DNA of 64,000 nt from an uncultured Acidobacteriota bacterium (GTDB lineage Bacteria; Acidobacteriota; UBA6911), in contig CAVZBT010000018.1 in assembly GCA_963773605.1 (NCBI GenBank), forward strand, positions 65,071-129,070, in the 5' to 3' direction. Shown piece by piece: positions 3,815 to 45,934 of this stretch (position 1 is the stretch's first letter; every line of letters begins with the position of its first letter). Under the pieces are notes generated by a model, which was not told the origin of the DNA, searched no databases, and saw only the letters and a list, made by a program, of their open reading frames with translations. The translations under genes were made by a program, and so were the position numbers.

Positions 3815-4019
3815 TTCAACGATCTCCTGACAGAGCCGACGCAGAAATCAGCCGCAGAGACAAACAATCCCGCCCAATTGGAGCAATTTGCTGGCCACAG
3901 CCCGAGGATGGCAGTTGCTTCTTGGGCGAGAAACGGTGTGAACTGCTCTCGTATCAATGACTTGGGATGACATAGAGGGGGTGGCCACTTTGGCGAGCCC
4001 GACGAGCAACCCAACCGGA

Positions 4020-24527: not shown

Positions 24528-27500
24528 CTACCACAGGATCTTCATGCTCACCTGTCCGATCCTGGGAGCCCTCGCGCTTGTGACCCTGCCGAAATTCGAG
24601 CTGGTAAAGCTCCCCGACGGAGTGCCGAACTGCGCGTGGTTGAACGCGTTGAAGAACTCCGCACGGATTTGTACAGACCACCTCTCCGTGACCCGGGTGT
24701 CCTTGTGTACGGCAAAGTCCCAGTTGTTGGTGCCCGGCCCGTGGAAGAACCGCCGATTTGCATTGCCGAACCTCCCCAGCGGCGCGGCAACAAAAGCACC
24801 CTTATCAAAGTAGGTATGGGCCGTCGTCTCACGCGGCTCGTGGAACACGGGGTCTCCGACACGGTCCGGCACATCGATGCCCGACGCGCCCACCAGCGAC
24901 CGGTCGCCGCTCTGCGACAGCGTTATCGGGAAGCCGGTGGCAAACCGGGTGATGCCGTTGAGGCTCCAGCCCTCGACCAGGCGCCGCGGCCCACCGCCGA
25001 AGAGCCTGGCGAAGGGGAGCGTGTAGTTGTAGCTCACGACGAAATTGTGCGTGGCGTCGAAAGCGGAAAGGGACCGGCTCAAGGCGTAGTTCGAGTAATT
25101 CATCCGCGCCGTGAACGCAGACGAATTATCGATCGACTTGCCGAAGGTGTAGGCGGCCAGGAAGCTCAGGTTCGCGGCCCGCCGCTCGAGGGTCAGCTGC
25201 ATCGAGTTGTAGCTGGAGTTGGCTGCCGCAATCTGATAGTCGTTATGGCCGAAATCGTTCCCCAGAATGGTGCGGGTTCCGTACACCTTGCTGCCGTCGG
25301 GCCTGGTAAAGATCGTGTTCTCCTGGTTGGGACCGCATTGCACGGTCCCTGCCATCACGCCGGAGCCGCGCAGGCTCATGCAGAGGTTCGGGTCACCGGG
25401 GTTGGCCTCGATAAAGGACATGAGCTTGTGTCCCTGGGTGCCCACGTACGCCATGGTCATCACCATGGAACGGCTGAGCTGTCGCTGGATGGATAGGTTG
25501 TAGTGCTCCGCGTAGGGAAGCCCGTTGCTCGGAACGATTCCCGGTGAGCTGGAAATCGGGAGGAAGACCGAATAGTCCATGGTCTTGTTTTTCAGATCGC
25601 CGGGAGCTGGGAGAACGAAGGGGAATCGCTGCGTCTGGGAAGTGCCGTCAGCACGGGTGAGGAACGGTGTCTCGAAGAGCGGCGGTGAGATCGAAACCCA
25701 GTAGAGGCCGTAGGGAGCGTCACCCCAGATCTGGAACGTACCCGAGTCTTCGACCGCCGTGTAGTAGAGGCCAAAGGACGCCCGGATACTGGTCTTGCCA
25801 CCACCCAGTATTTTCCCCAGCACGCCGTCCTTGGTCTGCGGAGACCAGGCGAGGCCGAGCCGGGGCGCAAGGTTCTTGTAGTCGGTGGGTGCAATCGTCC
25901 TGGTCAGGGTACCGCCTTGGCCATCGGGATCGCCCGGCACAAGCCAACCCTTCGGCGCGGTTGGGAACTGAGTCGATTGCACGCCCGGAATGATCGCGTT
26001 GAGCCGATCGTAAATGTCGTACCACGGCATGCTGAATTCCCAGCGCAACCCGTAGTTGAGGGTGAGGTTCGGCCGCACCCGCCAGGAATCCTGGCCATAG
26101 ATGCCTAAGTACCTCGTCCGGGAGTCTATAACCTGGAGGCTCGACTGTGTGTAGTCGCGGGGAGCTCCCAGGAAGTAGTCGGCGTAATCGCTGCCTGTTT
26201 CGGAGCCGTCGAATGCGAAAATGCCGTTCGGCGCATAATAGTTGCGCCCGTTGATCTGGAGATAGCGGCCTTCCACGCCGAATTTCATGGTGTGGGTCCC
26301 GTGGAGCCTCGAATAACCTTCCGAGAAGCTCCAGCTGTTGTTCGGCTGGACCAGAGTCGGGTTCGCTCGTCCGAAACTGAAGGTGTTCGTGGAGATGATC
26401 GGCACGGCTTCCTCTCCGGTTCCGGAATTTACAATGCCGAGCGTGTTAGCTCCGGTTACAAATCCCAGGCTGGAGAGCGAGACGCTCGGATCCCCGGGAT
26501 TGAGCTGGTGAACCGATGTCCGCATGAAACTCACGCGGGCCTCATTCACCGCATTCGGGCCGAAGGTCTTGATGTTACTGAGCACAGCCTGCTGGGCCCG
26601 TCTGTCCGTGGTAGCCGGGAAGCCACCCAGGCTGGAACCGGCATTGGGATTGGCATCGGATGAGTCGTCGAAGTGATAGTAAACGAACCAGTTGCCGACC
26701 TTCTGGGTCATGATGTCGATACGTTGACCCATCTTTTCGTCCGTGATGCGGCGATTCGCACCTGCGCTCGCATACGAGCTTGCGCCGGAGTTGGGAAGAG
26801 GGATGTACTTCATCGTACCCTTCGCCGCCGCAGAATAGGCTTCGGCAGGAATCACGCCGTCCGGGAAGACAGAACTGTACGGGTCCCCGGCGGCGACGGT
26901 ACGCCCAAGGCGCTGGCTGAGCACCTGTGCCCAATGAGGGCCGCTCACCGTCCCTGTCAGGTTGCTGACGCCGATGTCCCCCCCCCGTTGCGCGGCTGTC
27001 GGAACCGTAACCAGGCCGGTGCTCACCCCCTGTATTTCCCTTGTGCCCTGATAATCGGTGAACCAGAAGACCTTGTTCCTGATCAGGGGACCGCCCATCG
27101 CGTAGCCGAACTGATTACGTTTCAGATCCGCGCGATTGGGATCGAAAAATCCGCGTGCGTCCAGCTGTTTGTTTCTCAGAAACTCGAACGCCGTGCCGTG
27201 GAAGCTGTTGGTCCCGTTTTTCGTGATGGCGTTCATGATCGCGCCGCTGAACCGGCCGTACTCGGCATCGAAGCTGTTGGTGATCAGCCGGAACTCGGAC
27301 ACGGCGTCGAGATTCGGAATGACCGCCGTACCGAAGTTTCTGCCTTCCCCCACGTCTCCGCCGTTCACCAGGAAGGAATTTGCCTGCTCGCGCTGCCCGT
27401 TGACGGACTGGTTACCCGCGGAGAGTCCGCCCGACACGCTGGCACTCGAACCTGTGCCGGCGCTTGACGGAGCAACCCCGGCCTGAAGCCCGAGCAGGTC

Positions 27501-27965
27501 GACAAAGCTGCGCCCGTTGAGCGGCAGCGTGAGTATCTTTTTATCGTCGACCACCTGTCCCATCTGGGTGTTGGTGGTCTCGACCTGAACCGGATTGGCC
27601 GTCACCTCAATCGATTCACTGAGGTTTCCAACCTGCATGGAAATGTCCACGCGGCGCTGCTCGTTGACGGTAAGAACGACGTCGTTGGCGGCGTACTTCT
27701 GGAATCCGCTCGCCGTGACCTCGATCCGGTAACGGCCCACCGGCAAGGCCAGGAAACGGTACTGGCCCTGATGGTCCGTAGCCACTCTCGTCGTCACGCC
27801 GGTAGCCGTTTCCGTAGCCACGACTGTGACTCCGGGGAGAACTCCGCCTGATGCATCATTCACAACGCCGAGGATGGAGCCGCCCGTCTGCTGAGAGAAC
27901 GCCGGCACGGCAAATGCGAGTATCAGGCCCAAAAAGAGGATCGTCCTGCGGGTATCGGGATTCAT
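24528..27965 (-). CDS. Oar-like TonB-dependent outer-membrane receptor with N-terminal CarboxypepD_reg domain
   Basis: An intact 1145-aa ORF with a signal peptide. 'GSILGVVNDASGGVLPGVTVVATETATGVTTRVATDHQGQYRFLALPVGRYRIEV' is the CarboxypepD_reg domain. It is followed by a plug and a long beta-barrel ending in an aromatic residue ('...GQVSMKILW'). Confidence 0.85.
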   Translation of the reverse strand: MNPDTRRTILFLGLILAFAVPAFSQQTGGSILGVVNDASGGVLPGVTVVATETATGVTTRVATDHQGQYRFLALPVGRYRIEVTASGFQKYAANDVVLTVNEQRRVDISMQVGNLSESIEVTANPVQVETTNTQMGQVVDDKKILTLPLNGRSFVDLLGLQAGVAPSSAGTGSSASVSGGLSAGNQSVNGQREQANSFLVNGGDVGEGRNFGTAVIPNLDAVSEFRLITNSFDAEYGRFSGAIMNAITKNGTNSFHGTAFEFLRNKQLDARGFFDPNRADLKRNQFGYAMGGPLIRNKVFWFTDYQGTREIQGVSTGLVTVPTAAQRGGDIGVSNLTGTVSGPHWAQVLSQRLGRTVAAGDPYSSVFPDGVIPAEAYSAAAKGTMKYIPLPNSGASSYASAGANRRITDEKMGQRIDIMTQKVGNWFVYYHFDDSSDANPNAGSSLGGFPATTDRRAQQAVLSNIKTFGPNAVNEARVSFMRTSVHQLNPGDPSVSLSSLGFVTGANTLGIVNSGTGEEAVPIISTNTFSFGRANPTLVQPNNSWSFSEGYSRLHGTHTMKFGVEGRYLQINGRNYYAPNGIFAFDGSETGSDYADYFLGAPRDYTQSSLQVIDSRTRYLGIYGQDSWRVRPNLTLNYGLRWEFSMPWYDIYDRLNAIIPGVQSTQFPTAPKGWLVPGDPDGQGGTLTRTIAPTDYKNLAPRLGLAWSPQTKDGVLGKILGGGKTSIRASFGLYYTAVEDSGTFQIWGDAPYGLYWVSISPPLFETPFLTRADGTSQTQRFPFVLPAPGDLKNKTMDYSVFLPISSSPGIVPSNGLPYAEHYNLSIQRQLSRSMVMTMAYVGTQGHKLMSFIEANPGDPNLCMSLRGSGVMAGTVQCGPNQENTIFTRPDGSKVYGTRTILGNDFGHNDYQIAAANSSYNSMQLTLERRAANLSFLAAYTFGKSIDNSSAFTARMNYSNYALSRSLSAFDATHNFVVSYNYTLPFARLFGGGPRRLVEGWSLNGITRFATGFPITLSQSGDRSLVGASGIDVPDRVGDPVFHEPRETTAHTYFDKGAFVAAPLGRFGNANRRFFHGPGTNNWDFAVHKDTRVTERWSVQIRAEFFNAFNHAQFGTPSGSFTSSNFGRVTSARAPRIGQVSMKILW

Positions 27966-29935: not shown

Positions 29936-30012
29936 TGGTGGGCCCAGCAGGACTCGAACCTGCGACCCGCTGATTATGAGTCAGCTGCTCTAACCAACTG
30001 AGCTATGGGCCC
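29936..30012 (-). tRNA. tRNA with CAU anticodon, most likely tRNA-Ile2 (lysidine type); elongator tRNA-Met not excluded
   Basis: The reverse complement 'GGGCCCATAGCTCAGTTGGTTAGAGCAGCTGACTCATAATCAGCGGGTCGCAGGTTCGAGTCCTGCTGGGCCCACCA' folds as a 77-nt cloverleaf with encoded CCA. The acceptor stem has C4/C5 as in E. coli tRNA-Ile2. Confidence 0.9.
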
Positions 30013-30105: not shown

Positions 30106-32199
30106 CTAAAACAGGCTGGCACCGCGCCGGAGCAGGTGAAAAAGATTGCTGTAGTCGTCGGTCCAGAGTTCCGTCGGTCGATCATCTTCGGTCCAGGGCC
30201 GGATCGCCCGCCGGACTGCCGCGGTCCTCAAGAACTGCGCATTTGCGGTCAGCAACACCCAATCCGAGGCCTCGATCCCCTCGTCCACGCGGCGCGCGCC
30301 TGACACCAGCGACGCCTCGGCCCTCTCCCACGGAATCCCGTGCGCCAGGCCGCGCGCGACCGGGGTCAGATCGAAGTACCTGCTGCTGACGTGGAGCGCC
30401 AGAATGCCGTCCGGCTGCAGATGGGAACGGTAAACCTCCGCGCACTCGCGCGTCAGCAGGTGAACCGGGATGGCGTCGCCGCTGAACGCATCCACGGCAA
30501 GGACATCGAAGCGCCAATCCTCGCCCCGTGCGTTTTCCTGCTGCATCGAGATCCGGGCATCTCCCAAGACAATAGCCGCCTGCGCGGCGCTGCCCGTCAG
30601 ATACGAAAAGTACTTTCGGCAAAGGCGCACGACATCGGGGTTGAGTTCATAGAAGCGCATGGTGTCGCCCGGCTGGGCATAACTTGCCAGTGTCCCCGCC
30701 CCCAGTCCGACGACGCCGATCCGGAGACTCTTCGAGCCTTCGGCCCGCTTCGGGTGATAGCGCAATGCGAGGCCGATGCCGCTTGCGGGACCATAGTAGG
30801 AAGTGGGCCAATTGCGCCTGAACGCGGACTGGTACTGGAACCCGTGCTGGACGCGGCCGTGCATGAGGGTGACGCGGTGCAAGCGCGGGTCGCCGCGGTT
30901 GGTCTCGAACACGCGCAGGACGCCGTAGAAGCTCCGCACCATCTCCAGATTCCCGGTCATGGCAAGTTCGAGGTACGATCCAAGCGTCACCGCAAGGACC
31001 GCCAGCGGCACGCAAAGCAGGATCCAGGCTCGGACGGACGTGCCGCGATACGCGAACCGGGTGCGCTCCACATACGCCACGGCGACGACCACCCCGCCCG
31101 CAGCCAGCAGCGCAGCGGGATACTCCCAGTATCCTTTGAAAACGACAGGCGCCACGAGCGTAACAAACAGCGCGCCGACCGCGCCGCCGGCGGCGATCAT
31201 CCCGTAATAGGCGGTGAGGTGCCGTGTCCCGGGCTTGATCCGCACCAGCTCGCCATGGCAGACCATGCAGGCGGCGAAAAGAGTGAGCGAGGCGGAGGCG
31301 AGCTGCCGCCCGAGCGGGGCAAACACGCCGTCCAGCAGCACGTCGCAAGACCAGGCCAGACCTGCAGCCAACAGGATGCCGAAGAGTGGGCGTACATACC
31401 ATTCCGGCTTGTGAAAGCACAGGATGAAGGACAACAAATAGACCCCGAGCGGCAAAACCCACAACAGTGGAATGGCGGCGACGTCCAGGCAGAGCTGATT
31501 TGTCGCGGACAACAGCATGAGCGAGCTGCATGCGGGCAGGAGCATCCAGAGGGTCCGCTGCGCCACGCTCGGTTCCCGCTCGGCGGGAGCCCGCATCGGA
31601 CCCGTGCCCTCGCTGACGCTCGTCCGGGCCACGCGCACGTAGCCGAGGGCACACCACCCGCAGAGGGCGGCAAATAAGCCGTATGCCCCCGCCCAGATCC
31701 AGGTCTGGCTCCGGAGCGGGATGGAAGGCTCGATCAGGAACGGGAACGCAAGAATGGCCAGCAGCGAGCCCGCGTTCGAAAGTGCATAGAGCCTGTAGGG
31801 CGATGCGCCCGGGCGGCTCCGGCCGAACCAGGACTGCAACAACGGGGTGGTCGCGGCGAGCATGACGTACGGGAAACCGACGCCGACAGCCAGGAGCCCC
31901 AGGATCCGCAGGAGCGGATGGCTCGCACTTGCGGGTTTCCATGCCGTGGCCGCAAGCACCGGGAGCGTCGCCAGCGACAGCGCGAGCATCAGGGCGTGCA
32001 GCACGGTCTGGGTCCCGTGTGAACGGCGGGCCAGGACGTGCGCGTAGCCGTACCCGGCAAGCAGGAGCACCTGGAAAAACAGCATGCAGGTGGTCCAGAC
32101 GGCCGGGCTCCCGCCAAACCAGGGGAGGAGGCGCTTTCCCAGCAGGGGTTGAATCCAGAAGAGCAAAAACGCGCTCAGAAACAGCGTCGAGCCATACAC
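30106..32199 (-). CDS. Fused polytopic membrane domain plus spermidine-synthase-like (class I methyltransferase fold) protein
   Basis: An intact 697-aa ORF. The N-terminal region of about 420 aa has many TM helices. The C-terminal part carries 'IGVVGLGAGTLASY...FDVLAVDAFSGDAIPVHLLTRE...GILALHVS', typical of spermidine synthase-like domains. Confidence 0.8.
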   Translation of the reverse strand: MYGSTLFLSAFLLFWIQPLLGKRLLPWFGGSPAVWTTCMLFFQVLLLAGYGYAHVLARRSHGTQTVLHALMLALSLATLPVLAATAWKPASASHPLLRILGLLAVGVGFPYVMLAATTPLLQSWFGRSRPGASPYRLYALSNAGSLLAILAFPFLIEPSIPLRSQTWIWAGAYGLFAALCGWCALGYVRVARTSVSEGTGPMRAPAEREPSVAQRTLWMLLPACSSLMLLSATNQLCLDVAAIPLLWVLPLGVYLLSFILCFHKPEWYVRPLFGILLAAGLAWSCDVLLDGVFAPLGRQLASASLTLFAACMVCHGELVRIKPGTRHLTAYYGMIAAGGAVGALFVTLVAPVVFKGYWEYPAALLAAGGVVVAVAYVERTRFAYRGTSVRAWILLCVPLAVLAVTLGSYLELAMTGNLEMVRSFYGVLRVFETNRGDPRLHRVTLMHGRVQHGFQYQSAFRRNWPTSYYGPASGIGLALRYHPKRAEGSKSLRIGVVGLGAGTLASYAQPGDTMRFYELNPDVVRLCRKYFSYLTGSAAQAAIVLGDARISMQQENARGEDWRFDVLAVDAFSGDAIPVHLLTRECAEVYRSHLQPDGILALHVSSRYFDLTPVARGLAHGIPWERAEASLVSGARRVDEGIEASDWVLLTANAQFLRTAAVRRAIRPWTEDDRPTELWTDDYSNLFHLLRRGASLF

Positions 32200-32353
32200 C
32201 GTGCCAGATTAGTCTGGACCGGGGAGGCGGCGCAACCGGTTCAAGGAGGGCGCAGCGGTCCAGCGGGGACTCGTGAAGCAAGAAAACTCCGTTTCCTGGT
32301 GGTTGAATTGCCATTTCTTACGTTCTTGTACATAGGCAGCGGAGGATTTCGTC

Positions 32354-33052
32354 GTGGACTTGTCAATCGCTCACGTAAAGTACGGTCTGCGCCCCATCGA
32401 CCAGAATCCCGGTGAAGCCCTGTGGGAAGCGTGCAACCAGCACGCCCACGCCATAATCCTTTTGATCGACGATGTCGCGGCTTACCGCCACGCCCGCCTG
32501 GTTCTGCTGTCAGGGCAGCTCGTCAAACTGCATGTCTTGGAACCGACCCGGGAACTGACCAGCGGAACTCAAGCGCTGGTATTTTTCTCCTACCGCGGCG
32601 AATCTCGCGCCTTTTTCTCGACGCTCGTGGATCATCGTCCGGAAGGGGCTTCGGTGGGCGCCGAACTGGTCCTGCGGATGCCCTCGGAACTCTTCGGCCA
32701 TGAAGCCCGGAGAGCCGCGCGGGTGGCTGTGGACAGGAGCAGCGGCCTGTCCGCCCGGGTTTCTGTTGCGCAACGGGGCGGCACCCTGCTTCCCATCCCG
32801 ATTAATCTGAGTTTGACCGGGATCTTGCTCGAGTTTCGGCCTGAAGACGACCCGGAACTCCCACGGGGAGCGACGGTCCAGATCGAGCTGCAACTGGGGG
32901 AGGATGCCGTAGCCCTTCCTGCTGAAGTTCGCCGCCGCACCGGCCACCGATATGGCCTGATGTTCGCCGGTATCGTCAAGAACGAAACGGTTGATCCACC
33001 TCCCGCCCTCGGGAAGATCGCGGCCGCGCTGAAGGCGCTCCCCGCCGGGTAG
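32354..33052 (+). CDS. PilZ domain-containing protein (putative c-di-GMP receptor)
   Basis: GTG follows GGAGGA. The PilZ motifs are 'RRAARV' (RxxxR) and 'INLSLTG' ([D/N]xSxxG). Confidence 0.7.
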   Translation: MDLSIAHVKYGLRPIDQNPGEALWEACNQHAHAIILLIDDVAAYRHARLVLLSGQLVKLHVLEPTRELTSGTQALVFFSYRGESRAFFSTLVDHRPEGASVGAELVLRMPSELFGHEARRAARVAVDRSSGLSARVSVAQRGGTLLPIPINLSLTGILLEFRPEDDPELPRGATVQIELQLGEDAVALPAEVRRRTGHRYGLMFAGIVKNETVDPPPALGKIAAALKALPAG

Positions 33053-33124: not shown

Positions 33125-33358
33125 TCACTGTATGGAATGCCCTCGGCATCCGGCCATCGCGTACTCGCCCGAGTGGATCATCTCGTTAAACTGCCGGATG
33201 TATTGACGACAAAAAGCGCAACTGGCAGCATGTTCCTCCAGAATCTCCACCATCTCCTGGCTCAGCCTGCCGCAGTGCATCTCGTAACAAATCACGTCGA
33301 GGGCTATCTGCACACACTCTGAGGGCACGGGTCCATGCATATGTACTCCGCTGGGCAC
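33125..33358 (-). CDS. Small soluble zinc-finger protein with ZAS (HxxxCxxC) anti-sigma-type motif
   Basis: A 77-aa protein with no TM segment. It carries 'EEHAASCAFCRQY' (H-x3-C-x2-C) plus additional Cys/His residues (C15, C24, H28, C29, C71, H74). Confidence 0.6.
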   Translation of the reverse strand: MPSGVHMHGPVPSECVQIALDVICYEMHCGRLSQEMVEILEEHAASCAFCRQYIRQFNEMIHSGEYAMAGCRGHSIQ

Positions 33359-33364
33359 TGTACA

Positions 33365-33877
33365 TTACGGCCACTGCGTTGACATCAACTGCAGGGGAGA
33401 CACGGTGTCGACGAACGTGACTTTTATGTACAGCCGACCGTCGGTGATCCAGAGCAGATTCAGCCTGTCCAGCTGTTCTGGCGTGAGCCGGTGACGGGGT
33501 TGCTGGAAAAGTCGTGTCTCCTGAACCGCGATCAGTCCGTCGTCCTGAGCCGCAACGGCAGGCCGTGCATCCTGATCCGCCAGGTTAATGACATTCTGGG
33601 AAGTCATCACGATTGAGACCGGCCTTCCCGGCAGCATGACCTCCGACACACGATCGATGAATTCGGTCGGGGTGATTCCCTGGCGTTGCAGCATGGCCCG
33701 GGGGACGATGAGCTCGCTTTGCACCGGTTGTGGAGCGGCCGGCTCTTCTGTGAGGGTGGGGATCGGCTCGGGTGACCGTGGGCAGCATTTCGGCGGCGGA
33801 TTGTCTTGCGCCGGTAGCGCAACGGAGATCAGCACGATGGATAGCGCAACCATAAGCAGCGATTTGGGACCAAACAT
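33365..33877 (-). CDS. Secreted hypothetical protein (170 aa)
   Basis: The signal peptide is 'MFGPKSLLMVALSIVLISVALPAQD', followed by a Pro-rich linker. No family was recognised. Confidence 0.6.
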   Translation of the reverse strand: MFGPKSLLMVALSIVLISVALPAQDNPPPKCCPRSPEPIPTLTEEPAAPQPVQSELIVPRAMLQRQGITPTEFIDRVSEVMLPGRPVSIVMTSQNVINLADQDARPAVAAQDDGLIAVQETRLFQQPRHRLTPEQLDRLNLLWITDGRLYIKVTFVDTVSPLQLMSTQWP

Positions 33878-34162
33878 ATCGGACTCCAGAAAAAAGCCCA
33901 GGCAACCGGGGGTCTCGCCGACGTGCGGACTCGCCTGTCCTCTCGATGCCTGGAGAGTTGTAGAAGCGCCGGGACCGGCAACCGCTCCGACGCGACCTCA
34001 TAGCCGCTAAGTGGGCCTACATCTACCAAGAACGGAATTCGGCAGAACTCGCCTACCGGAGAATTGCAGCACCGCGATTTTGTCGGGGCCCGGAGGCGAG
34101 AGACTGCTGCAGGGGCCGGCAGGAAGGATGGGGTTAGACTTGCAGGCAGGTGCCGGAGCGTA

Positions 34163-37100
34163 CTATCGGGGATCCCCCACCAGGACAAAGGGGGCCCAGG
34201 TGATGGGGCGACTGTCCTCCGGACGGGATGCGCCCCGGATAAGACTCAGCTGCGCATCCCGCAACGCGCCGGCTTTCGAAACACCACCTTGCGCGAGCAA
34301 TTCATAGAAGCGCGACGTGAGCCTGGACGTATCCGCATCTTCAGCGGGGAGGACGGTGGCAAGGACGGCGGGGGCGCCGGCACTCAGAAACGCCGGCACA
34401 AGTCCCCAGGGCATCTCTCCCCCAGCGACAGGTCCGATCCCCGTGTTGCAGCCTGCCAGTGTGACCAGCCGGTTGTGCGTCAAGCGCCATCGATGGATTA
34501 CCGAACTCTCCAGATGCGATTCATGCGGCCGCGCTCCGAACACCAGTGCGGGCATGCCGTGGCGCACCTCCGCGTGCCCGGAGAAGTGGATGATCTCGAA
34601 CATCCCCAAGGACGAATCCAGGGATCGCAGGTCGGCAAACGTCGCAATCCTGCTGTTCCGTTCAAAGAGCGCGCCGATCCGGGCCAATTCTCGTGCAGCC
34701 CCGGAGAGGTTCGAGGTGCCGTCCATCAGCAGAACCGTGGCACGCCGGGTGAAGTTTGCGGCCTTACCGGCAGCAAGGCAGGCATTCAGGACAGAGCGCG
34801 AAGGGGCAAACGACAGCGCATACCTCTCCAGCAGGTACCGACCGGCAGGATCGATCAAGCTGCCGAACGGCAGGAGATGGAGGGGACCGTCCGGCAGAAT
34901 AACCAAAGCCTGTACCGACGGCACCCCGATCGCCGGCAAAAGGGGACCGATCAGCGTTTCATACAGTCCCCGGGACAAAGTTGAGAATGACTCGGTGCTG
35001 CCAGTCCGGATACTCTCGGCATACTCTGCGGCAGAGGACTCCAATTCGTTCAGGGAAACATCCAGCCGAACGACCTTCGTCCCATTCTCGCCGGAAACAA
35101 ATGCGAAAGCCTGATCGGGGCAGAGGAAATACTCCACGGTGGCGGTGTGGGGCGGCAAGGGAATGGGCGTCCGGTTGACTGGCCGGGATGGGTTCGGCGC
35201 ATCCTGGGCATCGGCCCGGGCGCGAAGAGACTCCCGCAAGGTCATGGACTTGGCGCGATCGACGGCGGCGAGGATCTCGTTCGGCGCTTTCCGCAGATTG
35301 AGCAGCAACGGGATCATCTCGCGATAGGGATCGAAACGCCGGGCCAAAAAGGACCGGCGGAGGTCCGGCGAGGCTATGCGGGTCCGCATCCGTTCCAGAA
35401 CCCCGGCGGCGGTCTTGAAGTGCCGCAGCGCAGCCTCCTGATCCCCCGCCCGCACCAGGAGAAATCCGGACAGGCTATGGGCCTGCCAGGCCACTTCCGG
35501 CAGTGTGGTGGCGGCGATCTCCAGGGCTCTTTTCACCTCGCCCTCAGCTTCGGAGAGCCTACCCTTTTCGATGAATACCTGGGCAAGGCCGATGCGTGCT
35601 CGGGCCTCCACCTCCCTCATGCTCCCGAGGGGACGCTGCAACGCCTGCTCGAAATGGGACTGCGCCTCGGAGAAGTCCCTCAATTGCAGAGCCAGGGATC
35701 CTTCTTTGGTCAGCAGGTTCAGGCGGCGCGCCTCCGTCTCCGGCGTCGTCCGCAGCGTGCCATCGGAAAGCAGAGTGGTCTGGAGATACCCCGCCTCCGC
35801 ATAATACCTGCGCGCTTCCGGATATCGGGCCATCCGTTCCATGACGACGCCGAGGTTCTCAAGCGCAAGGACAAGCGACTCGTGATCCATCGTCCGGTAA
35901 GCTCCGGCCAGGGCGGTCGAATATTCCTGCAGACTGTTATGAAGCTGGTTGAGCTTGAGATAGGTTGCCCCGAGGGAGTTGCACGCAAATGCCGCCCAGG
36001 ACTGCAATCCGGAGGAATCGGCCAGTTGCTTCAGCCGGGAGAGTACCGCAAGAGCCTCGTCGTAGCGTGCCTCCTCGCCGTAGGACGAACTCAAAGCGGC
36101 CAGAGCGCGCGCAATGAGGTCGGGGTCCGTGGACAGTTCGGCCCGATGCAACATCCTCCCATACTCGACGCTGGCCCCGTTATAGTCGGACAGGCCATAA
36201 AATCGCGCGGTACCCCGCAGTTGATACAGTCGCACGAGCTGCCAGTGGTCTCCCATCCGCTCGAATCCGCTGACGAGTGCGTCGCTTCCTTTCAGGGCCG
36301 GGAGCATGCCGCCCCGGGAGAACGACGCTATGAGTTGTTCCAGGCGGGTATTCAGCTCGTGCCGGACCTTTCTCCGGGATGGGGGGAGACTTCGGCAGAA
36401 TTCCAGCAGCGCGTTTCCGCTGGTGTCGTCTGTAGCGGTGCGCCGCGCCGCCTCCAAAGTGGCGGCGGCCCACTGCGGGCCGGACGGATCTCCGGCGGTT
36501 TCCTGCGCTAAGGTCAACGATTCGAGGAGGAGGCTGCGGATTAAAGGAGGGATTTTCTCGGGGACGATGCGCGCGAGGCGTTCCAGGGCGGGTGCGTCCC
36601 TGGCCCTTGCGGCGCGTCGGACCTCGCGCTCCAACAACTCCGAGCGGTTCATGAGGATTCGGGTTCTGAGGTCTTTGAGTTTCCTGGCCCAAATCGAGTC
36701 GGGGTCCCGGCCGAGGTACACGTCAATCTCGCGCACGGCCTGTTGATGACGCCCCAACTCGAATAAGGTACGGACCTTGTTGAACCGGGCTTCGTTTGAA
36801 TCCGGTTTGAGCTGCAGTATGCCTTCAAAATCGGCCAGGGCGCCATCCAGTGAGCTGCTCCGCACACTGGGGTCGGTGGTGGCCATCGCTGCCTCAAACC
36901 GCGCGACCCCGCGACCCGACAGCGCCTGAGCATCCGCGCGCCCGGAATCGAGTATGTGCTGAAACTGCTCGATCGCCGGCCCGAAACGATTTTGCCGCAG
37001 GTAAATGTACCCCAAACCCAGCAAGGGTTCCCGCAGGCCGTTCTGGACTCCGAGCGCCCGGTTGAAAAACGTCTCCGCGTGCTCCAGGCTGCCGGCAGGT

Positions 37101-37591
37101 TCAGCACTCCGCTGCGACGCATCGGAGACGAAGGGTAGATCGAGCCGGAGGTCGTTTGGACTCCGGGCCGTGTAATCGTGTTGCAGGGCCGCACGCGCCT
37201 GTGCCGACAGAGTCTCGGCCTTCGCCGACTCGTAGAAACGGAGCGACACCGCGGCCAGGCAGAGAATGACTGCGGCCGCAGCCGCCACACCCCAATAGTA
37301 CCAGCGGCGCCGGGGCCTCTTGTTTGCCGCATCCGCGGACGTTGAGCGGATCAGGTCAAGGTTCCGTTGAATCTCGGATGACGCGCACTCCGGTTCTGCC
37401 TCAAGTGTGTCGCCGGCTTCCGGGTGAAGCAGCTGGAGCAGCCCGGCCAACTCCTCCCGGCACGCGGAGCAGCGCACCAGGTGCAGTTCGAGCTCTTCTA
37501 CGGACCGCGCTCCGGGGGATCCGGTCACATAGCCGTACAGATCGCCTTCGTCGAGGCAAGCGCTCTCCATTACCCTGATCTTTCGAGTCAT
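34163..37591 (-). CDS. Membrane-anchored anti-sigma (zf-HC2/ZAS) - TPR - CHAT (caspase-like protease) fusion protein
   Basis: An intact 1142-aa ORF. The N-terminus has 'HLVRCSAC' (H37-x3-C41-x2-C44). There is a single TM helix, 'WYYWGVAAAAAVILCLAAVSL' (aa 97-117). A helical TPR-like repeat region of about 650 aa follows. The C-terminal CHAT domain has 'IIHFSGHAEV' (His) and 'LVTLAGCNTG' (Cys). The start ATG overlaps the sigma-gene stop (ATGA at 37588-37591). Confidence 0.85.
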   Translation of the reverse strand: MTRKIRVMESACLDEGDLYGYVTGSPGARSVEELELHLVRCSACREELAGLLQLLHPEAGDTLEAEPECASSEIQRNLDLIRSTSADAANKRPRRRWYYWGVAAAAAVILCLAAVSLRFYESAKAETLSAQARAALQHDYTARSPNDLRLDLPFVSDASQRSAEPAGSLEHAETFFNRALGVQNGLREPLLGLGYIYLRQNRFGPAIEQFQHILDSGRADAQALSGRGVARFEAAMATTDPSVRSSSLDGALADFEGILQLKPDSNEARFNKVRTLFELGRHQQAVREIDVYLGRDPDSIWARKLKDLRTRILMNRSELLEREVRRAARARDAPALERLARIVPEKIPPLIRSLLLESLTLAQETAGDPSGPQWAAATLEAARRTATDDTSGNALLEFCRSLPPSRRKVRHELNTRLEQLIASFSRGGMLPALKGSDALVSGFERMGDHWQLVRLYQLRGTARFYGLSDYNGASVEYGRMLHRAELSTDPDLIARALAALSSSYGEEARYDEALAVLSRLKQLADSSGLQSWAAFACNSLGATYLKLNQLHNSLQEYSTALAGAYRTMDHESLVLALENLGVVMERMARYPEARRYYAEAGYLQTTLLSDGTLRTTPETEARRLNLLTKEGSLALQLRDFSEAQSHFEQALQRPLGSMREVEARARIGLAQVFIEKGRLSEAEGEVKRALEIAATTLPEVAWQAHSLSGFLLVRAGDQEAALRHFKTAAGVLERMRTRIASPDLRRSFLARRFDPYREMIPLLLNLRKAPNEILAAVDRAKSMTLRESLRARADAQDAPNPSRPVNRTPIPLPPHTATVEYFLCPDQAFAFVSGENGTKVVRLDVSLNELESSAAEYAESIRTGSTESFSTLSRGLYETLIGPLLPAIGVPSVQALVILPDGPLHLLPFGSLIDPAGRYLLERYALSFAPSRSVLNACLAAGKAANFTRRATVLLMDGTSNLSGAARELARIGALFERNSRIATFADLRSLDSSLGMFEIIHFSGHAEVRHGMPALVFGARPHESHLESSVIHRWRLTHNRLVTLAGCNTGIGPVAGGEMPWGLVPAFLSAGAPAVLATVLPAEDADTSRLTSRFYELLAQGGVSKAGALRDAQLSLIRGASRPEDSRPITWAPFVLVGDPR

Positions 37592-38286
37592 CTCAGCTCC
37601 ACCGTTCCAACCGAACGCGCCGCCGCGCTTCGGATTCGGTTCTTGAGACGATTGAGCACCTTTTCCACGCCCGTCTTGGACAACTTGAGGCCTCTGCAGC
37701 CGGCAATCTGGGCCACCGACAGATCATGGGCGAAGTAGAGTTTGAAGATCACCAGATCGCGCGCCGAATCCTGGCCGGAATTGCTTCTTATGGAGTCGAC
37801 ACTCATTTCGGTCAGCTCGCGGACCAGAATACCGCGTTCGATGGCGTGATGAGGAGCCAACGGGCCCGTGAGGTGTCGGGCCGTGTCCGCAAACTCCGCT
37901 GTCGCCACGATTTTGGGGCCGGGAACGCGTTTTTGGGCTCGGGTGCGGCGAAGATAGTCTCGAACTACGGAGCGGGTGATGACCGCCAGGTACGCCAGCA
38001 GCTCGGATTCCGTGCTCCCGGAAAAGCGTTTTATAGCCGCACAATCGTGTTCTATGAGCCGGACAATCACGTTCTGAAACAGGTCGTTTTCCTGTACCGC
38101 GTCCGGCAAGCCGGTGGGACACGAATACGATTTGTTGCCTTCCTGGCGGAGCGTACCCCGGATAAAGATCTTGATCTTCGGAGTGAAGCGCCGGAGAAAT
38201 TCCGACCAGAGTTCGGTGTCGTCCCTGTTTTCGGCACACAAAAGCAGCAACTCCACCGAGTCAAGTTGCGCAGGATCAGTCGCCAC
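37588..38286 (-). CDS. ECF-type RNA polymerase sigma-70 family factor
   Basis: The sigma-2 region is 'DLFQNVIVRLIEHDCAAIKRF...LLAYLAVITRSVVRDYLRR'. The sigma-4 HTH is 'DLVIFKLYFAHDLSVAQIAGCRGLKLSKTGVEKVLNRLKNRI'. Confidence 0.85.
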   Translation of the reverse strand: MATDPAQLDSVELLLLCAENRDDTELWSEFLRRFTPKIKIFIRGTLRQEGNKSYSCPTGLPDAVQENDLFQNVIVRLIEHDCAAIKRFSGSTESELLAYLAVITRSVVRDYLRRTRAQKRVPGPKIVATAEFADTARHLTGPLAPHHAIERGILVRELTEMSVDSIRSNSGQDSARDLVIFKLYFAHDLSVAQIAGCRGLKLSKTGVEKVLNRLKNRIRSAAARSVGTVELR

Positions 38287-39169: not shown

Positions 39170-40875
<1,706 letters not shown>

Positions 40876-40895: not shown

Positions 40896-42698
40896 CTATT
40901 TCCTGGACAGGCTGACCAATTCGCGATCGACGAGAACGCGCTGCTCGATGAGCCGGTTCAGCGTCTCATCGTCCTTCCGCTGAGCCGCATCGGCGATCTG
41001 TAGCGAGGATCTTTTGCTTGTATGATGCCAGTCCAGGAGCGCGTACAGCGCGTTGTAAAAGCTCTCCGCGGCGTTTCCGCTGACAGAGTCTCCGGCACTT
41101 CTTCGATCTGCAGCTGGGCCAGAAGCACCTGCTCCGCTCCGCCGGCAAACGACCGGTGAAGACGCTCAAAGCTGCAAATCCTGCTGTTGCGGTGAAACTC
41201 TTCCATAACGACGGCAAATATCTTTTCGGTCGCCAGTCCGTCGAAATCCCGCTCCGAACAATGCGGCAGGATTTCCGGCTGAAGCTCCGTATTGCTCAGC
41301 AGCAACTGGAGGAGCCGTCTTTTCAGCGAACTTCATCGGCGCCGAGGGACGCGAGCGGCACCTCGGGCAGCCGGGTCCGTCTCTGCTGGGCGGCCCGCTT
41401 CACTTCCGCGAGCAGCTGCTGATCTTCGATGTGCAACTTGCGGGCGAATCGGAATACGTAGTCGGATCGTTCAACGGCGTTGGGCAACTTTGCCAGGTAC
41501 GGCAGAACGGCATTTAGAACCTGAATTTTGCTCCTGGGGTTATCCAGCACTGCCCTGGCTGCTGAATTGCCGTATCGAGCACAAAGTCCAGGTAGGGCGC
41601 GGACTCGCGCAGTCGGTTCCGGTATTCGGCTCGCCCCCGCCTTCCGGATGAATTCGTCCGGATCCTGCCCGTCGGCAGCCGGAGTACCTTGACCCGAAAA
41701 TCCTCCTCCAAAAAAAGATCGAGCGACCTCTGCGTTGCGGCAAGCCCAGCGGAATCAGGATCGTAGCTGACGACCACTTCGCGCGTGTAACGACCCAGCA
41801 ACTGCACCTGTTGGGGAGTCAGACTGGTTCCAAGCGAGGCAACCAGATTCTCGATCGCCGTGCTGGAAGGGGATAATAAAATCCATGTAGCCTTCGACCA
41901 GTACGGCGAAGTCCAGACTTCTTGATTCCCTCCCGGGAGAAGCTCAAGCCGAAAAGGTTTCGACTTTTATTATAGAGCCTCGTCTCCGGTGAATTCAAAT
42001 ACTTCGGTTGCCGGTCGCCCATGCGCGCGCCCGCCGAAAGCGATGACTCTTCCGCGCACGTCAGTGATGGGAAACATGATCCGTCCGCGGAACGCGTCGT
42101 AAGGCGTCTGCCGTCCTCGGAGCGTCTTGATCAGTCCGCATTCCTCGAGACTTCGGGCATATGATCCCAAGCTTCGACAGCCGTTGGAGTAAGCGCGTCT
42201 GCCGTCGGCGGGGAGAATACCCCAGAGCAAACCGGTCGATCGTGTCGCCGGCGTCACGCCCCGTCCCTTCCAGATACTTCAGCGCGGGGCGTCCTTCTTC
42301 GGATTCCAGCAGCATGCGGCGGAAAAAGCTGCAGCGCCTCCTCCATGGCCCGCGCAATGACTTCGGTGTCGCCCGCCGCATCCTCGCCCGGCGCGGCATC
42401 GCTCGGGGAGCGCGACCCCGTACCGCTCCGCGATGAAGCTGCACCGACTCCGGGAAAGGTCAGGTGCTCGACCTGCATTACGAACTTGAAGACGTCGCCG
42501 CCGACCCCGCATCCGAAGCACATGAAGATCTGCTTCTCTTCGTTGACGTTGAACGACGGGGTCTTTTCGGTGTGGAAGGGGCAGCGGGCGACGTGGTTCC
42601 GACCGCGCTTCTTCGAGCGCCACGTACTCGGAGACCAGCGATACGATATTGACGGCATTCCGCACTTCATCCAGGACGCCGTCAGAGTACAGGGGCAT
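40896..42698 (-). CDS. dnaG: DNA primase DnaG, reading frame broken by many frameshifts
   Basis: The start at 42698 gives '[28 protein letters not shown]'. The zinc finger is '[34 protein letters not shown]'. '[19 protein letters not shown]' and the TOPRIM piece '[15 protein letters not shown]' are present. The pieces are spread over all three frames. The stop at 40896 lies 20 nt before rpoD. Confidence 0.85.

Positions 42699-43636: not shown

Positions 43637-45934
<2,298 letters not shown>

Follow-up and report, generated by a model that had tools for sequence, protein, structure and literature searches.

The closest described system is DdvA/DdvS of Myxococcus xanthus, in which a transmembrane anti-sigma factor, composed of a zinc anti-sigma (ZAS) domain, TPR repeats and a CHAT domain, is paired with an ECF sigma factor (PMC6061681; PMC11506125, Sci Adv 2024; PDB 8ROT, 8RW5, 8RLZ). 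No other relative has been characterised. DdvA/DdvS regulates CBASS and type III-B CRISPR-Cas and is able to confer protection against phage Mx4 (PMC6061681; PMC11506125). For binding both sigma2 and sigma4 of DdvS, residues 1-70 of DdvA suffice, and DdvA deprived of its TPR-CHAT part becomes a substrate of RseP (PMC11506125). The DdvA linker (residues 95-143) is turned towards the partner protomer's catalytic dyad, to which V129-P140 come closest (PMC11506125). That the CHAT domain cleaves its own protein is a hypothesis: mutating the dyad (H862A, C907A) gave no phenotype, and no autocleavage was seen (PMC11506125). The authors raised an attack of reactive oxygen species on the zinc site as a second input and reported such proteins only from Myxococcota and one Comamonas (PMC11506125).

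Parts of this arrangement are found in other known systems. Csx29, of the Csx29/Csx30/RpoE type III-E CRISPR craspase, is a protease tied to the control of an ECF-type sigma factor; this cytoplasmic enzyme is switched on by RNA-bound Cas7-11 and cleaves a separate protein. RseA (with DegS and RseP) and RsiW (with PrsW and RasP) are single-pass anti-sigma factors whose bulky extracytoplasmic domain is removed before the site-2 protease acts. The class I zinc anti-sigma domains of RsrA, ChrR, RslA and RsiW carry a C/H...H-x3-C-x2-C signature, and RsrA is a small soluble ZAS protein.

The locus described here lies in the window, the whole stretch of 64,000 nucleotides of an Acidobacteriota contig that was analysed. 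Its four open reading frames, for a sigma factor, a 1142-aa transmembrane anti-sigma factor, a secreted 170-aa protein and a soluble mini-ZAS protein, were found where the original prediction had placed them. The assembly contains indel errors near the module; the module's reading frames nonetheless match their orthologues end to end. The original prediction knew of no characterised example of this architecture, but it is not unprecedented, as it is the same as that of DdvA/DdvS. Because DdvA/DdvS is also the top match, the locus belongs in part to an already characterised kind; new are the Acidobacteriota version with a gene set of four, its own specific promoter and its predicted non-defence targets.

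In a Foldseek search, the AlphaFold2 model of the 1142-aa protein (pLDDT 84) matched DdvA best (8rw5/8rot_A, E 2e-19, target-normalised TM 0.55, ~1020 aligned columns). A 27-sequence profile searched against the PDB found 8rot_B (E 2.5e-12) in four collinear segments, namely the ZAS motif, the scaffold, the TPR region and the CHAT Cys region, and C1048 aligns with C907 of DdvA. The 1142-aa protein and DdvA are only ~18% identical, and a phmmer search with the single sequence missed DdvA. Both proteins have a CHCC-type ZAS domain of ~60-70 aa, one transmembrane helix, a long linker, a helical scaffold, a TPR superhelix and a C-terminal CHAT domain, with 42 residues between the dyad members here and 45 in DdvA. 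Each of the two systems has its sigma gene just ahead of the anti-sigma gene within one operon. The 1142-aa protein is ~150 aa longer and comes from another phylum.

The genes for the sigma factor, the anti-sigma factor, the 170-aa protein and the mini anti-sigma co-occur across ~30 independent Acidobacteriota loci, so the arrangement is not a product of chance. The ZAS-TPR-CHAT family represented here is restricted to Acidobacteriota (~30 loci found). Of the 25 loci with upstream DNA, 24 have the sigma gene right before the anti-sigma gene; one locus (L025) has an anti-sigma gene without a neighbouring sigma gene. The mini-ZAS gene is present in 28 of 31 loci. The two downstream genes, which the original prediction had attached to the system, are thus conserved neighbours. 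The flanks consist of housekeeping genes that differ from locus to locus.

The sigma gene (37588..38286, minus strand) encodes a 232-aa ECF-type sigma factor with sigma2 and sigma4 regions, as judged by TIGR02937 (sigma70-ECF; 48.3 bits against a cutoff of 42.9) and a family alignment; its Pfam Sigma70_r2 match is below cutoff, and the NCBIfam type III-E sigma model gives 16 bits against a cutoff of 100. No close relative was found in the PDB, and no specific similarity to any solved sigma factor was detectable. Cys17, Cys82 and Cys197 are conserved in the 24-member family alignment. The stop of the sigma gene overlaps the start of the 1142-aa reading frame as ATGA, as originally noted (...CTGAGATGACTCGA...).

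The 1142-aa protein (34163..37591, minus strand) is DdvA-like, with ZAS domain, transmembrane helix, linker, scaffold/TPR region and CHAT domain in this order; conservation was judged on 27 orthologues of 41-73% identity. Conservation, alignment with DdvA and the model identify aa 1-60 (37412..37591, minus strand) as a zinc anti-sigma domain of the CHCC type, predicted to be cytoplasmic. The set consists of the H37, C41 and C44 that had been noticed from the start and, in addition, C12, each conserved in at least 90% of the orthologues. Pfam recovers the TPR and CHAT boundaries as expected and zf-HC2 only weakly (E 0.032), and the NCBIfam 'anti-sigma factor' model NF052375 covers aa 21-137 (6e-8, under its cutoff). 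The region was aligned with residues 24-45 of DdvA ('HLADCEKCQVEL'), and helices are modelled at 15-23, 31-40 and 42-55.

A single transmembrane helix, aa 97-117 (37241..37303, minus strand), is marked by a hydrophobic stretch with KRPRRR just before it; AlphaFold2 places a helix (98-138) across this region. By the positive-inside rule, and because the ZAS domain must reach a cytoplasmic sigma factor, the N-terminus is predicted to be cytoplasmic and the TPR-CHAT part periplasmic, in agreement with the topology originally argued. The linker between membrane and scaffold contains a periplasmic motif, S-P-x-D-L-R-L-D-L-P-F (aa 144-154; 37130..37162, minus strand), which is among the most conserved stretches of the protein: R149, L150, L152, P153 and F154 are invariant in the 27 orthologues, and the motif was one of two automatically chosen patterns in the search for related loci. 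The motif may serve for cleavage or docking, since the same region of DdvA faces the partner's catalytic dyad. A helical scaffold and TPR superhelix follow (~aa 166-800; 35192..37096, minus strand). Here Pfam TPR_19, TPR_12, TPR_16 and related families match between ~aa 166 and 740, the model shows nothing but helices between 168 and 796, and pieces of these ~650 aa align with DdvA 192-282 and 426-580. The protein ends in a caspase-like CHAT protease domain (~aa 810-1142; 34166..35164, minus strand), for which the Pfam match is nearly complete (aa 873-1140, E 7e-46, profile positions 4-289 of 289). H1002 and H1006 ('IIHFSGH') and C1048 ('LAGCNTG') are invariant in the 27 orthologues; the catalytic codons are at 34574-34576 (H1006) and 34448-34450 (C1048) on the minus strand. 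The catalytic dyad originally called holds, and its invariance at 41-73% identity argues for catalysis.

The predicted layout is therefore a sigma factor co-translated with a single-pass anti-sigma factor, whose putative periplasmic part of ~1000 aa comprises scaffold, TPR and CHAT with an intact His-Cys dyad. It is moderately probable that this is a transmembrane module of the DdvA/DdvS type in which protease-gated proteolysis frees the sigma factor and leads to a regulatory cascade, with a PPCC protein (see below) and feedback by a soluble anti-sigma. The N-terminal CHCC zinc domain should sequester the sigma factor in the cytoplasm. By analogy with the DdvA model, a periplasmic cue would activate the CHAT domain, the bulky periplasmic domain would be clipped off in the juxtamembrane linker at SPxDLRLDLPF, and an RseP-type site-2 protease would then cut the transmembrane helix and release the sigma factor. 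Single-pass topology and removal of a bulky extracytoplasmic domain ahead of the site-2 protease would be shared with RseA and RsiW; unlike there, the anti-sigma factor itself contains the candidate site-1 protease, as proposed for DdvA.

Beyond an intergenic gap of 285 bp (33878-34162) lies the gene of a secreted 170-aa orphan protein (33365..33877, minus strand), both as first described. A signal peptide is followed by an alpha/beta domain (aa 50-165; pLDDT 75 overall, ~90 in the domain). The mature N-terminus is predicted to read Q-x4-P-P-x-C-C (the 'PPCC' motif); A23, P29, C31 and C32 are invariant in the family alignments and Q24 nearly so. Searches of Pfam, NCBIfam and PADLOC gave no match, a PDB fold search with the model found none either (best E 0.1), and a search of 5.8 billion clusters yielded just 20 homologues. 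The PPCC protein would be sent to the compartment of the TPR-CHAT part, where it may act as feedback ligand, pseudosubstrate or substrate.

Alternatively, the protease may not cut its own linker. With the same anatomy, the CHAT domain could be a sensor or pseudo-protease, or could cleave another periplasmic substrate such as the PPCC protein, while a separate DegS-, Prc- or PrsW-like protease makes the site-1 cut. The silent dyad mutants and unseen autocleavage of DdvA (PMC11506125) fit this reading, as do the usual protein-binding role of TPR domains, the presence of the conserved PPCC partner in every complete module and, in the homologue from locus L079, three tandem 'IQPPPCCNGWIGT' repeats resembling a repeated recognition or cleavage motif. 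It is nevertheless rather unlikely: the dyad is invariant, the juxtamembrane linker is so strongly conserved, and no additional protease gene conserved beside the module was seen among the flanking genes.

The last gene of the operon (33125..33358, minus strand) encodes the soluble mini-ZAS, 77 aa from a GTG start; the ATG at 33340, which gives 71 aa and is used by gene callers, is the more likely start. The domain (C-x27-H-x3-C-x2-C; C15, H43, C47 and C50 in 77-aa numbering) has its four Cys and His residues, together with E20 and E29, invariant across 24 homologues. HHalign relates it to the ZAS domain of the 1142-aa protein (89% probability, E 2e-6), and its profile best matches RsiW (0.009), RslA (0.047), DdvA-Nt 8rlz (0.17) and also ChrR in the PDB, although for both ZAS domains such matches are individually weak. 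On these sequence grounds the mini-ZAS is a predicted second anti-sigma domain, paralogous to the N-terminus of the 1142-aa protein, which bears out the original assignment. Both domains carry the class I signature. Unlike the class I examples, the mini-ZAS, of ~65 aa, is encoded apart from the sigma factor, after a secreted-protein gene and behind the sigma factor's own predicted target promoter, and it coexists with a membrane anti-sigma factor for presumably the same sigma factor. It might re-capture free sigma factor and so reset the switch after the irreversible destruction of the membrane anti-sigma.

The presence of a second small, conserved anti-sigma-like protein invites a comparison with the craspase, in which the TPR-CHAT protease would cleave the mini-ZAS and free the sigma factor, as Csx29 acts on Csx30. 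The TPR-CHAT fold is indeed common to both (8eey_B, E 2e-14, Foldseek), but DdvA is the markedly better match in the same search. The protease lies beyond a transmembrane helix from its ZAS domain and the mini-ZAS has no signal peptide, so the two should occupy different compartments. In the flanking genes checked there are no cas genes, nor any Cas7-11/gRAMP gene; the original prediction had likewise seen no cas genes in the window. Such a mechanism is extremely improbable. The analogy with Csx29/Csx30 drawn originally survives as a distant likeness only: Csx29 is more distant than DdvA, and its mechanism, with a cytoplasmic, Cas7-11-guided protease and a separate target, is mismatched to a predicted periplasmic protease fused to the anti-sigma factor.

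The zinc sites could also form a thiol redox switch of the RsrA type, with oxidants or electrophiles attacking the CHCC sites of both ZAS proteins and releasing the sigma factor; the sigma cysteines and the vicinal Cys-Cys of the PPCC protein would follow the same logic, and TPR-CHAT would be accessory. An RsrA-like C...H-x3-C-x2-C spacing occurs in both domains, three cysteines are conserved in the sigma factor, the CC pair of the secreted protein is invariant, and the DdvA authors likewise consider the zinc site a target (PMC11506125). This is improbable, however. Many ZAS domains are not redox-sensitive, a conserved periplasmic protease of 1000 aa with an intact dyad would be left unexplained, and thioredoxin and thiol-repair genes are absent from the regulon found.

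Where the freed sigma factor would act is suggested by a promoter motif. An ECF-type promoter, with -35 GTAGGC (34051-34056), a 16-nt spacer and -10 CGTTCT (34029-34034), precedes the 170-aa/77-aa operon (34029..34056, minus strand; 42.7 bits by the PWM). A second copy, with -35 GTGGTT (32299-32304), a 16-nt spacer and -10 CGTTCT (32321-32326), lies at 32299..32326 on the plus strand (29.5 bits), its -10 ending 27 nt before the start codon of a convergent gene for a 232-aa PilZ-domain protein, a predicted c-di-GMP receptor (32354..33052, plus strand; Pfam PilZ E 1e-8, 35.9 bits against a cutoff of 22.5; RRAAR (RxxxR) and NLSLTG (D/NxSxxG) visible in the translation). No other match in the window reaches 12 bits, and the functional unit extends to both promoters. 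A strict regex matched 33 times in the window and 30 orthologous loci taken together; unrelated CHAT loci, 1.39 Mb in all, gave 1 match. From this co-occurrence, the module's sigma factor probably recognises GTAGGC-N16-CGTTCT. The 170-aa and 77-aa genes share a dedicated promoter and belong to the system; since that promoter is of the sigma type, they would be outputs, perhaps with a role in feedback, and not, as first proposed, inputs acting upstream. The motif is absent upstream of the sigma gene in 26 loci. The sigma/anti-sigma operon is therefore probably not autoregulated, whereas ddvS-ddvA is DdvS-dependent.

In the window the sigma factor would thus drive the PPCC and mini anti-sigma operon and the PilZ gene, a predicted regulon member; in relatives it would also drive PAS histidine kinases, receiver proteins and small AraC-type regulators. 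In locus L002, which is 72% identical, the corresponding site reaches 32.6 bits, and PilZ genes follow the same promoter there and in L004, L015 and L028. Elsewhere the motif precedes PPCC and mini-ZAS genes, PilZ, PAS-HisK and a pentapeptide-repeat protein, as well as a gene with a weak Sortilin/BNR-like match and one conserved family without a Pfam match. An 18-base version of the motif found 30 metagenome sites, most with high full-PWM scores, some beside module genes and others before HTH_18, HTH_18+PilZ, receiver, PAS and HTH_17 proteins; small AraC-type regulators stand behind the same promoter in relatives.

These targets speak against a role as a phage-attack sensor, in which, as in Myxococcus, the sigma factor would turn on antiviral defence genes elsewhere in the genome. 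The precedent is the control of CBASS and CRISPR-Cas by DdvA/DdvS and the protection against Mx4. Against it, no cas, CBASS or PADLOC-recognised genes occur in the module or the flanking genes checked, the flanks are variable housekeeping genes, and the genes found behind the motif are signalling or regulatory, or lack a Pfam match, apart from the pentapeptide-repeat and weak Sortilin/BNR-like ones, with no recognised defence gene among them. A defence role is very unlikely, and the output appears to be a regulatory cascade. The accessory genes differ too: an unknown protein and a C25-type peptidase accompany DdvA, in place of the PPCC protein and mini-ZAS.

Between the promoter and the 170-aa gene lies a GC-rich, hairpin-forming 5' leader of ~145 nt (33878..34022, minus strand; MFE -59 kcal/mol), which has no family match in Rfam and contains a terminator-like hairpin at 33897-33910. 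Within a subclade of the orthologous loci, 9 of the 12 pairs of its first hairpin show covariation.

The sigma factor and its presumed partner are encoded together on the minus strand, where the ORF of a 232-aa ECF sigma factor (37588-38286) shares an ATGA overlap with that of a 1142-aa membrane anti-sigma factor (34163-37591). A gap of 285 bp separates the latter from the gene of a secreted 170-aa protein (33365-33877, minus strand), and an ORF for a soluble protein of 77 aa lies beyond it (33125-33358, minus strand). These four ORFs, with their coordinates, overlap and gap, are as the original prediction, made from the sequence alone, had described them, and its domain calls for the 1142-aa protein (anti-sigma, TPR, CHAT) agree with the Pfam and NCBIfam scans. 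Pfam places a CHAT domain at aa 873-1140 (E 7e-46) and finds a dozen TPR families, the zf-HC2 match being just marginal (E 0.032), and aa 21-137 match an NCBIfam "anti-sigma factor" model below its threshold. In an alignment of 27 full-length orthologues (41-73% identity), C12, H37, C41 and C44 are each at least 90% conserved, and the N-terminal domain is predicted to be a cytoplasmic CHCC zinc anti-sigma (ZAS) domain with these residues as zinc ligands. The caspase-like residues read from the single sequence, H1006 and C1048, are invariant in the same alignment, as is H1002 (motifs IIHFSGH and LAGCNTG), and the CHAT His-Cys dyad is predicted to be intact and canonical. A single hydrophobic helix, preceded by KRPRRR, spans aa 97-117; we infer an orientation in which the ZAS domain lies inside the cell and the large C-terminal part in the periplasm. 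The linker between this helix and the scaffold contains the stretch SPxDLRLDLPF (aa 144-154), which is among the most conserved of the family and is compatible with a candidate cleavage or docking site.

The closest known system is DdvA, the membrane anti-sigma factor of Myxococcus xanthus, as it is the best match in both structure and profile comparisons, rather than the protease of the craspase. A Foldseek search of the PDB with the AlphaFold2 model of the 1142-aa protein (pLDDT 84, pTM 0.70) returned DdvA first (E 2e-19, TM 0.55 on the target), with an alignment of about 1020 columns at 18% identity, followed by separase (E ~4e-15) and Csx29 (E 2e-14). According to this model, the scaffold, TPR superhelix and CHAT domain would share the DdvA fold. 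The profile of the 27 sequences matched chain 8rot_B (E 2.5e-12) in four collinear pieces: the ZAS motif (aa 31-52 on DdvA 24-45), the scaffold (aa 223-314 on 192-282), the TPR region (aa 484-637 on 426-580) and the CHAT Cys region (aa 1031-1125 on 885-977), where C1048 falls on C907. Single-sequence phmmer against the PDB found generic TPR proteins alone; DdvA was missed in this way and came to light only through a profile and a structure model.

DdvA, a single-pass anti-sigma factor of 991 aa, combines a CHCC zinc anti-sigma domain (about 70 aa) in the cytoplasm with a periplasmic scaffold-TPR-CHAT module that has the dyad H862/C907, and structures from cryo-EM and NMR are available (8ROT, 8RW5, 8RLZ) (PMC11506125). 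The three-helix motif known from separase and craspase is missing from its CHAT domain; dimerisation completes the active site, and each protomer turns its linker towards the dyad of its partner (PMC11506125). The bulky periplasmic domain blocks the protease RseP, and shortened DdvA is degraded in an RseP-dependent manner (PMC11506125). The DdvA operon also encodes an unknown protein and a C25 peptidase. The statement that no characterised example of this architecture exists is thus out of date, as DdvA and its sigma factor DdvS are such a case, and the module is a distant member or variant of the DdvA-type class of protease anti-sigma factors. It differs from its relative in several ways. The DdvS-DdvA operon is autoregulated from PddvSA, whereas the sigma/anti-sigma operon here is without such a promoter. 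DdvA controls a CBASS/CRISPR-Cas defence island, whereas the targets found in the scans of the present module are not defence genes. A further difference lies in two conserved accessory genes, for the 170-aa and 77-aa proteins, which suggest feedback from both sides of the membrane.

The locus had originally been likened to the type III-E craspase, in which the TPR-CHAT protease Csx29 cuts Csx30, a separate soluble protein akin to an anti-sigma factor. Csx29 does appear among the structural matches, after DdvA, but it is a soluble cytoplasmic TPR-CHAT protein, whereas the 1142-aa protein has a transmembrane helix and carries its CHAT domain on the far side. This mechanism was therefore rejected on topology: the protease and the 77-aa protein are predicted on opposite sides of the membrane, which does not allow the one to cleave the other. 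The Cas7-11/gRAMP, CRISPR array and soluble TPR-CHAT protein that define a craspase are not features of the module, cas genes were found neither in the flanking genes checked nor in related loci, and the NCBIfam model of the type III-E sigma factor scores the present one at 16 bits against a cutoff of 100. PADLOC returned nothing for seven proteins of the module and its neighbourhood. Overall, the observations of the original prediction stood, and its interpretation did so in part, since the anatomy and the conserved neighbours held and the lack of precedent and the craspase logic did not.

With one genome per species scanned, about 28 full or near full-length orthologues of the anti-sigma factor were found, all in Acidobacteriota/Terriglobia MAGs; weaker matches in other phyla covered the CHAT/TPR part only. 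With the N-terminal 170 aa as query, an exhaustive phmmer search returned 43 representative clusters (E <= 1e-10); those of full length measure 1107-1154 aa, and the family is compact. DdvA-like proteins had been found solely in Myxococcota and one Comamonas (PMC11506125), so this family in Acidobacteriota extends their phyletic range. The expectation that the four genes travel together was borne out when the four window proteins were used as tblastn queries against all loci. The sigma gene lies directly upstream of the anti-sigma gene in 24 of the 25 loci with upstream DNA, the exception being locus L025. Of 31 loci, 28 carry the gene of the 77-aa protein and the remaining three are truncated; the gene lies either directly 3' of the 170-aa gene or upstream of and divergent from the sigma gene. 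The 170-aa gene is likewise a conserved neighbour: across loci a gene for a protein with a signal peptide and a P-P-x-C-C motif lies 3' of the anti-sigma gene, and in three loci it is instead divergently upstream, followed by the gene of the small ZAS protein. Beyond the module, the flanks vary between loci (rpoD/dnaG in the window and in loci L002 and L081, mfd/surA in L082), which indicates that the module moves as a unit. One MAG, CAZHQK01, holds two odd loci: at 1-1550 of L025 a full-length anti-sigma gene has a HIT-like ORF in place of the upstream sigma gene, and in L029 a sigma gene is followed by just the first ~299 aa of an anti-sigma factor. This could reflect rearrangement, the presence of a second paralogue or a break in the assembly.

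The 232-aa sigma factor matches TIGR02937 (sigma70-ECF superfamily) over aa 31-221 with 48.3 bits against a cutoff of 42.9, and its Pfam Sigma70_r2 score of 21 bits is under the cutoff of 24. It is predicted to be an ECF (group 4) sigma-70 factor with sigma2 and sigma4 regions only. Single-sequence phmmer gave no match in the PDB, and the family profile found weak sigma4/FliA, SigC and RpoE matches alone, with no specific link to DdvS. Among ECF groups, ECF54 has CHAT neighbours and is without an anti-sigma factor; the word CHAT does not occur in the main text of PMC7826278. Two cysteines of the sigma family, C17 and C82, are invariant and a third, C197, is at least 90% conserved, and an N-terminal extension (VELxxxC...W-x-E-F-L-x-R) is also conserved. 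These three cysteines and the extension are unusual among ECF sigma factors, and may have a redox role, bind metal or contact the ZAS domains.

The 77-aa protein probably has a true length of 71 aa, with the ATG at 33340, which is the start used by gene callers. Its family consists of soluble proteins of roughly 65 aa in which C9, E20, E29, H37, C41 and C44 (71-aa numbering) are invariant, and the spacing of its Cys/His ligands is like that of the ZAS domain of the 1142-aa protein. The second anti-sigma motif noticed in this protein reflects homology to that domain, as HHalign aligns it to residues 15-60 of the 1142-aa family with 89% probability (E 2e-6). Its best profile matches in the PDB, which are individually weak, are all ZAS domains of anti-sigma factors (E 0.009 for RsiW, 0.047 for RslA, 0.17 for the N-terminal part of DdvA and 0.6 for ChrR). 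The protein, hereafter mini-ZAS, has the features of a class I zinc anti-sigma domain and is predicted to bind sigma. Residues 1-70 of DdvA alone bind DdvS tightly (PMC11506125), which makes sigma binding plausible for a domain of such length.

The 170-aa protein, called PPCC protein after its motif, has no match in Pfam, NCBIfam or PADLOC, and a search of 5.8 billion clusters yielded only 20 homologues. In an alignment of 18 sequences, A23, P29, C31-C32, P36 and L63 are invariant and Q24 nearly so; signal peptidase would cut after A23, leaving a mature N-terminus Q-x4-P-P-x-C-C. The C-terminal alpha/beta domain models well (pLDDT ~90), and a fold search of the model against the PDB gave no match (best E 0.1). 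Variants of the protein occur in loci L079, L010, L015, L017, L019, L022, L024 and L028. Several homologues of just 109-125 aa share the signal peptide and the P-P-x-C-C motif and nothing more, and in L079 (~6.7-7.1 kb, minus strand) the motif occurs three times in tandem as IQPPPCCNGWIGT, so it is the motif, and not the C-terminal domain, that is constant. The tandem arrangement of IQPPPCCNGWIGT resembles a precursor with repeated core peptides.

A comparison of the intergenic DNA 3' of the anti-sigma gene across loci revealed a shared bipartite element with the consensus aaaattTc.gGTaGGCgatt.cc....tttT.CGTTCTtGt. Its layout is ECF-like, with a -35 element GTAGGC, a 16-nt spacer and a -10 element CGTTCT. 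A strict regular expression finds 33 sites in the window and 30 orthologous loci, and a single one in a 1.39-Mb control set of non-orthologous CHAT loci. When a PWM derived from these sites was run over both strands of the window, exactly two matches reached 12 bits. The first, at 34029-34056 on the minus strand (42.7 bits), is the predicted ECF-type promoter of the PPCC gene. The second, at 32299-32326 on the plus strand (29.5 bits), has a -10 element that ends 27 nt before a PilZ-domain gene (32354-33052; Pfam PilZ 35.9 bits against a cutoff of 22.5). The translation of this gene contains both motifs of a PilZ c-di-GMP receptor, RRAAR (RxxxR) and NLSLTG ((D/N)xSxxG), and the protein is predicted to bind that ligand. 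From the strict co-occurrence of motif and module, we infer that the sigma factor recognises GTAGGC-N16-CGTTCT.

In other loci, the motif precedes the PPCC gene and, where it is separately transcribed, the mini-ZAS gene, as well as one additional neighbouring gene, for a PilZ protein (L002, L004, L015, L028), a PAS histidine kinase (L005, L012, L024, L082) or a pentapeptide-repeat protein (L014). An 18-base version of the motif occurs at 30 metagenome sites, most of which score highly with the full PWM. Some of them adjoin sigma, anti-sigma or mini-ZAS genes; other targets are small AraC-type HTH_18 proteins, an HTH_18-PilZ fusion, a stand-alone receiver, and PAS and HTH_17 proteins. The targets classifiable by Pfam are all signalling or regulatory, except for the pentapeptide-repeat protein and one weak Sortilin/BNR-like match, and no recognised defence gene is among the targets found in locus flanks and at metagenome sites. 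Behind the motif in two unrelated contigs (L019, 12951-13265, minus strand; L101, motif at 3860-3891, minus strand) lies a gene for a protein of ~100-120 aa without Pfam match, MxxLPFxAGDIVSxxxxDGxxRILKILxVDExGxYxxLFAQQ..., which may be a further member of the regulon.

Upstream of the sigma gene, the PWM found no site in any of the 26 loci tested: the best scores there range from -26 to +5, compared with 24-66 for real sites and a null 99th percentile of 0.9. The sigma/anti-sigma operon therefore does not seem to be autoregulated. A sigma-70 consensus scan of 32.2-39.2 kb found no promoter. A TTGACA upstream of the sigma gene is conserved with L002; owing to its poor -10 element, it is not claimed as a promoter.

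The leader of the PPCC gene (33878-34022, minus strand) is GC-rich and contains a terminator-like hairpin at 33897-33910. Across loci such leaders measure ~110-220 nt. Those compared (L008, L012, L014-L017, L019-L022, L024-L026 and L028) include a subclade in which the leader opens, ~35 nt after the -10 element, with a GC-rich hairpin, GCGCCCGG-GTTG-loop-CAAC-CCGGGCGC. Nine of its 12 pairs show compensatory changes, and its loop occurs in both orientations, TTGCCG and CGGCAA. A second, long hairpin follows downstream, and the Shine-Dalgarno sequence could be paired with a segment of the CUCCGC type. The leader in the window itself does not clearly share this structure. A global MAFFT/RNAalifold alignment recovered the first hairpin alone, and a helix sequestering the Shine-Dalgarno sequence is suggested by an alignment of four sequences, too few to claim more than conserved hairpins. 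The leader matched no Rfam family, with nothing credible even at relaxed thresholds, and in the whole window the tRNA alone reached an Rfam gathering threshold.

Sequence, structure prediction and homology together show a sigma factor co-translated with a membrane anti-sigma factor that has a CHCC ZAS domain, predicted to be cytoplasmic, and a TPR-CHAT part with an intact dyad, predicted to be periplasmic. In the mechanism proposed, a periplasmic cue would lead to CHAT-dependent removal of the periplasmic domain, after which a site-2 protease would cut the transmembrane helix and free the sigma factor. The latter would then transcribe the PPCC/mini-ZAS operon, the PilZ gene and other regulators elsewhere in the genome. 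Mini-ZAS would rebind the sigma factor as negative feedback, and the PPCC protein would be exported to the compartment of the TPR-CHAT part, for which it might be a ligand, inhibitor or substrate. A further step, which we regard as unlikely, is that the module acts by itself as an autocrine pulse generator, in which feedback in two compartments, gated by the protease, would set c-di-GMP and two-component signalling in Acidobacteriota. In such a generator, the TPR-CHAT part would have the PPCC protein as its cognate peptide ligand, its pseudosubstrate or its substrate, by analogy with securin and separase, and the PPCC protein would thus exert feedback on anti-sigma cleavage from outside the cell membrane. 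The sigma-induced mini-ZAS would end the response from inside, and a structured PPCC leader RNA controlling translation would form a third layer.

Acidobacteriota are a dominant and poorly understood soil phylum. Here, a distant yet recognisable relative of DdvA, the only studied anti-sigma factor with a built-in caspase-like protease, occurs as a compact conserved unit. Within the module, its neighbours and the motif targets found, the locus is not a defence island; its outputs appear to be regulators and second-messenger proteins instead of antiviral systems, so that the architecture looks like a general periplasmic sensing device and not a defence speciality. The headline architecture was already known, but the family offers a well-defined circuit in which autoproteolysis, still a hypothesis in Myxococcus, can be tested. 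Direct handles on it are the promoter, which is defined, the small regulon predicted from it, the invariant motif of the linker, the secreted partner, which is conserved, and the soluble anti-sigma factor under sigma control.

Further zf-HC2 and CHAT anti-sigma families were seen in metagenomic contigs L084 (708-5815) and L085 (833-4971). Each has a gene directly upstream, that of L084 reading as a sigma factor. The genes downstream differ from those of the present module; in L084 they encode a 321-aa protein of unknown family and a protein with a weak match to Peptidase_C39_2, an arrangement reminiscent of the DdvA operon. The juxtamembrane EPRLTGGF of the L084 anti-sigma factor resembles the DLRLDLPF of the 1142-aa family.

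The wider window was annotated from relatives and our own ORF calls. The genes flanking the module are housekeeping genes, and its surroundings comprise genes for a TonB-type outer-membrane protein, a methyltransferase, a tRNA, a membrane protein and the PilZ protein, as well as rpoD, dnaG, pnp and rpsO. Compared with the intact genes of L081, rpoD (39170-40875), dnaG (40899-42333) and pnp (43813-45934) are each broken over two or three frames; in rpoD, frame -2 encodes aa 1-84, frame -3 aa 68-337 and frame -1 aa 291-563. These splits are most likely assembly indel errors rather than pseudogenes, and ORF-based readings elsewhere in the window call for like caution. The ORF at 24528-27965 (minus strand), of nearly the same length as the anti-sigma factor (1145 aa), was considered as a paralogue and rejected, as it encodes an outer-membrane beta-barrel of the TonB-dependent-receptor type with an N-terminal CarboxypepD_reg domain. 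The tRNA gene is at 29939-30012 (minus strand). The gene at 30106-32199 (minus strand) encodes a 697-aa polytopic membrane protein without Pfam match, which adjoins the PilZ gene in L002 too (82% identity) and whose C-terminal part reads like a spermidine-synthase-type methyltransferase fold.
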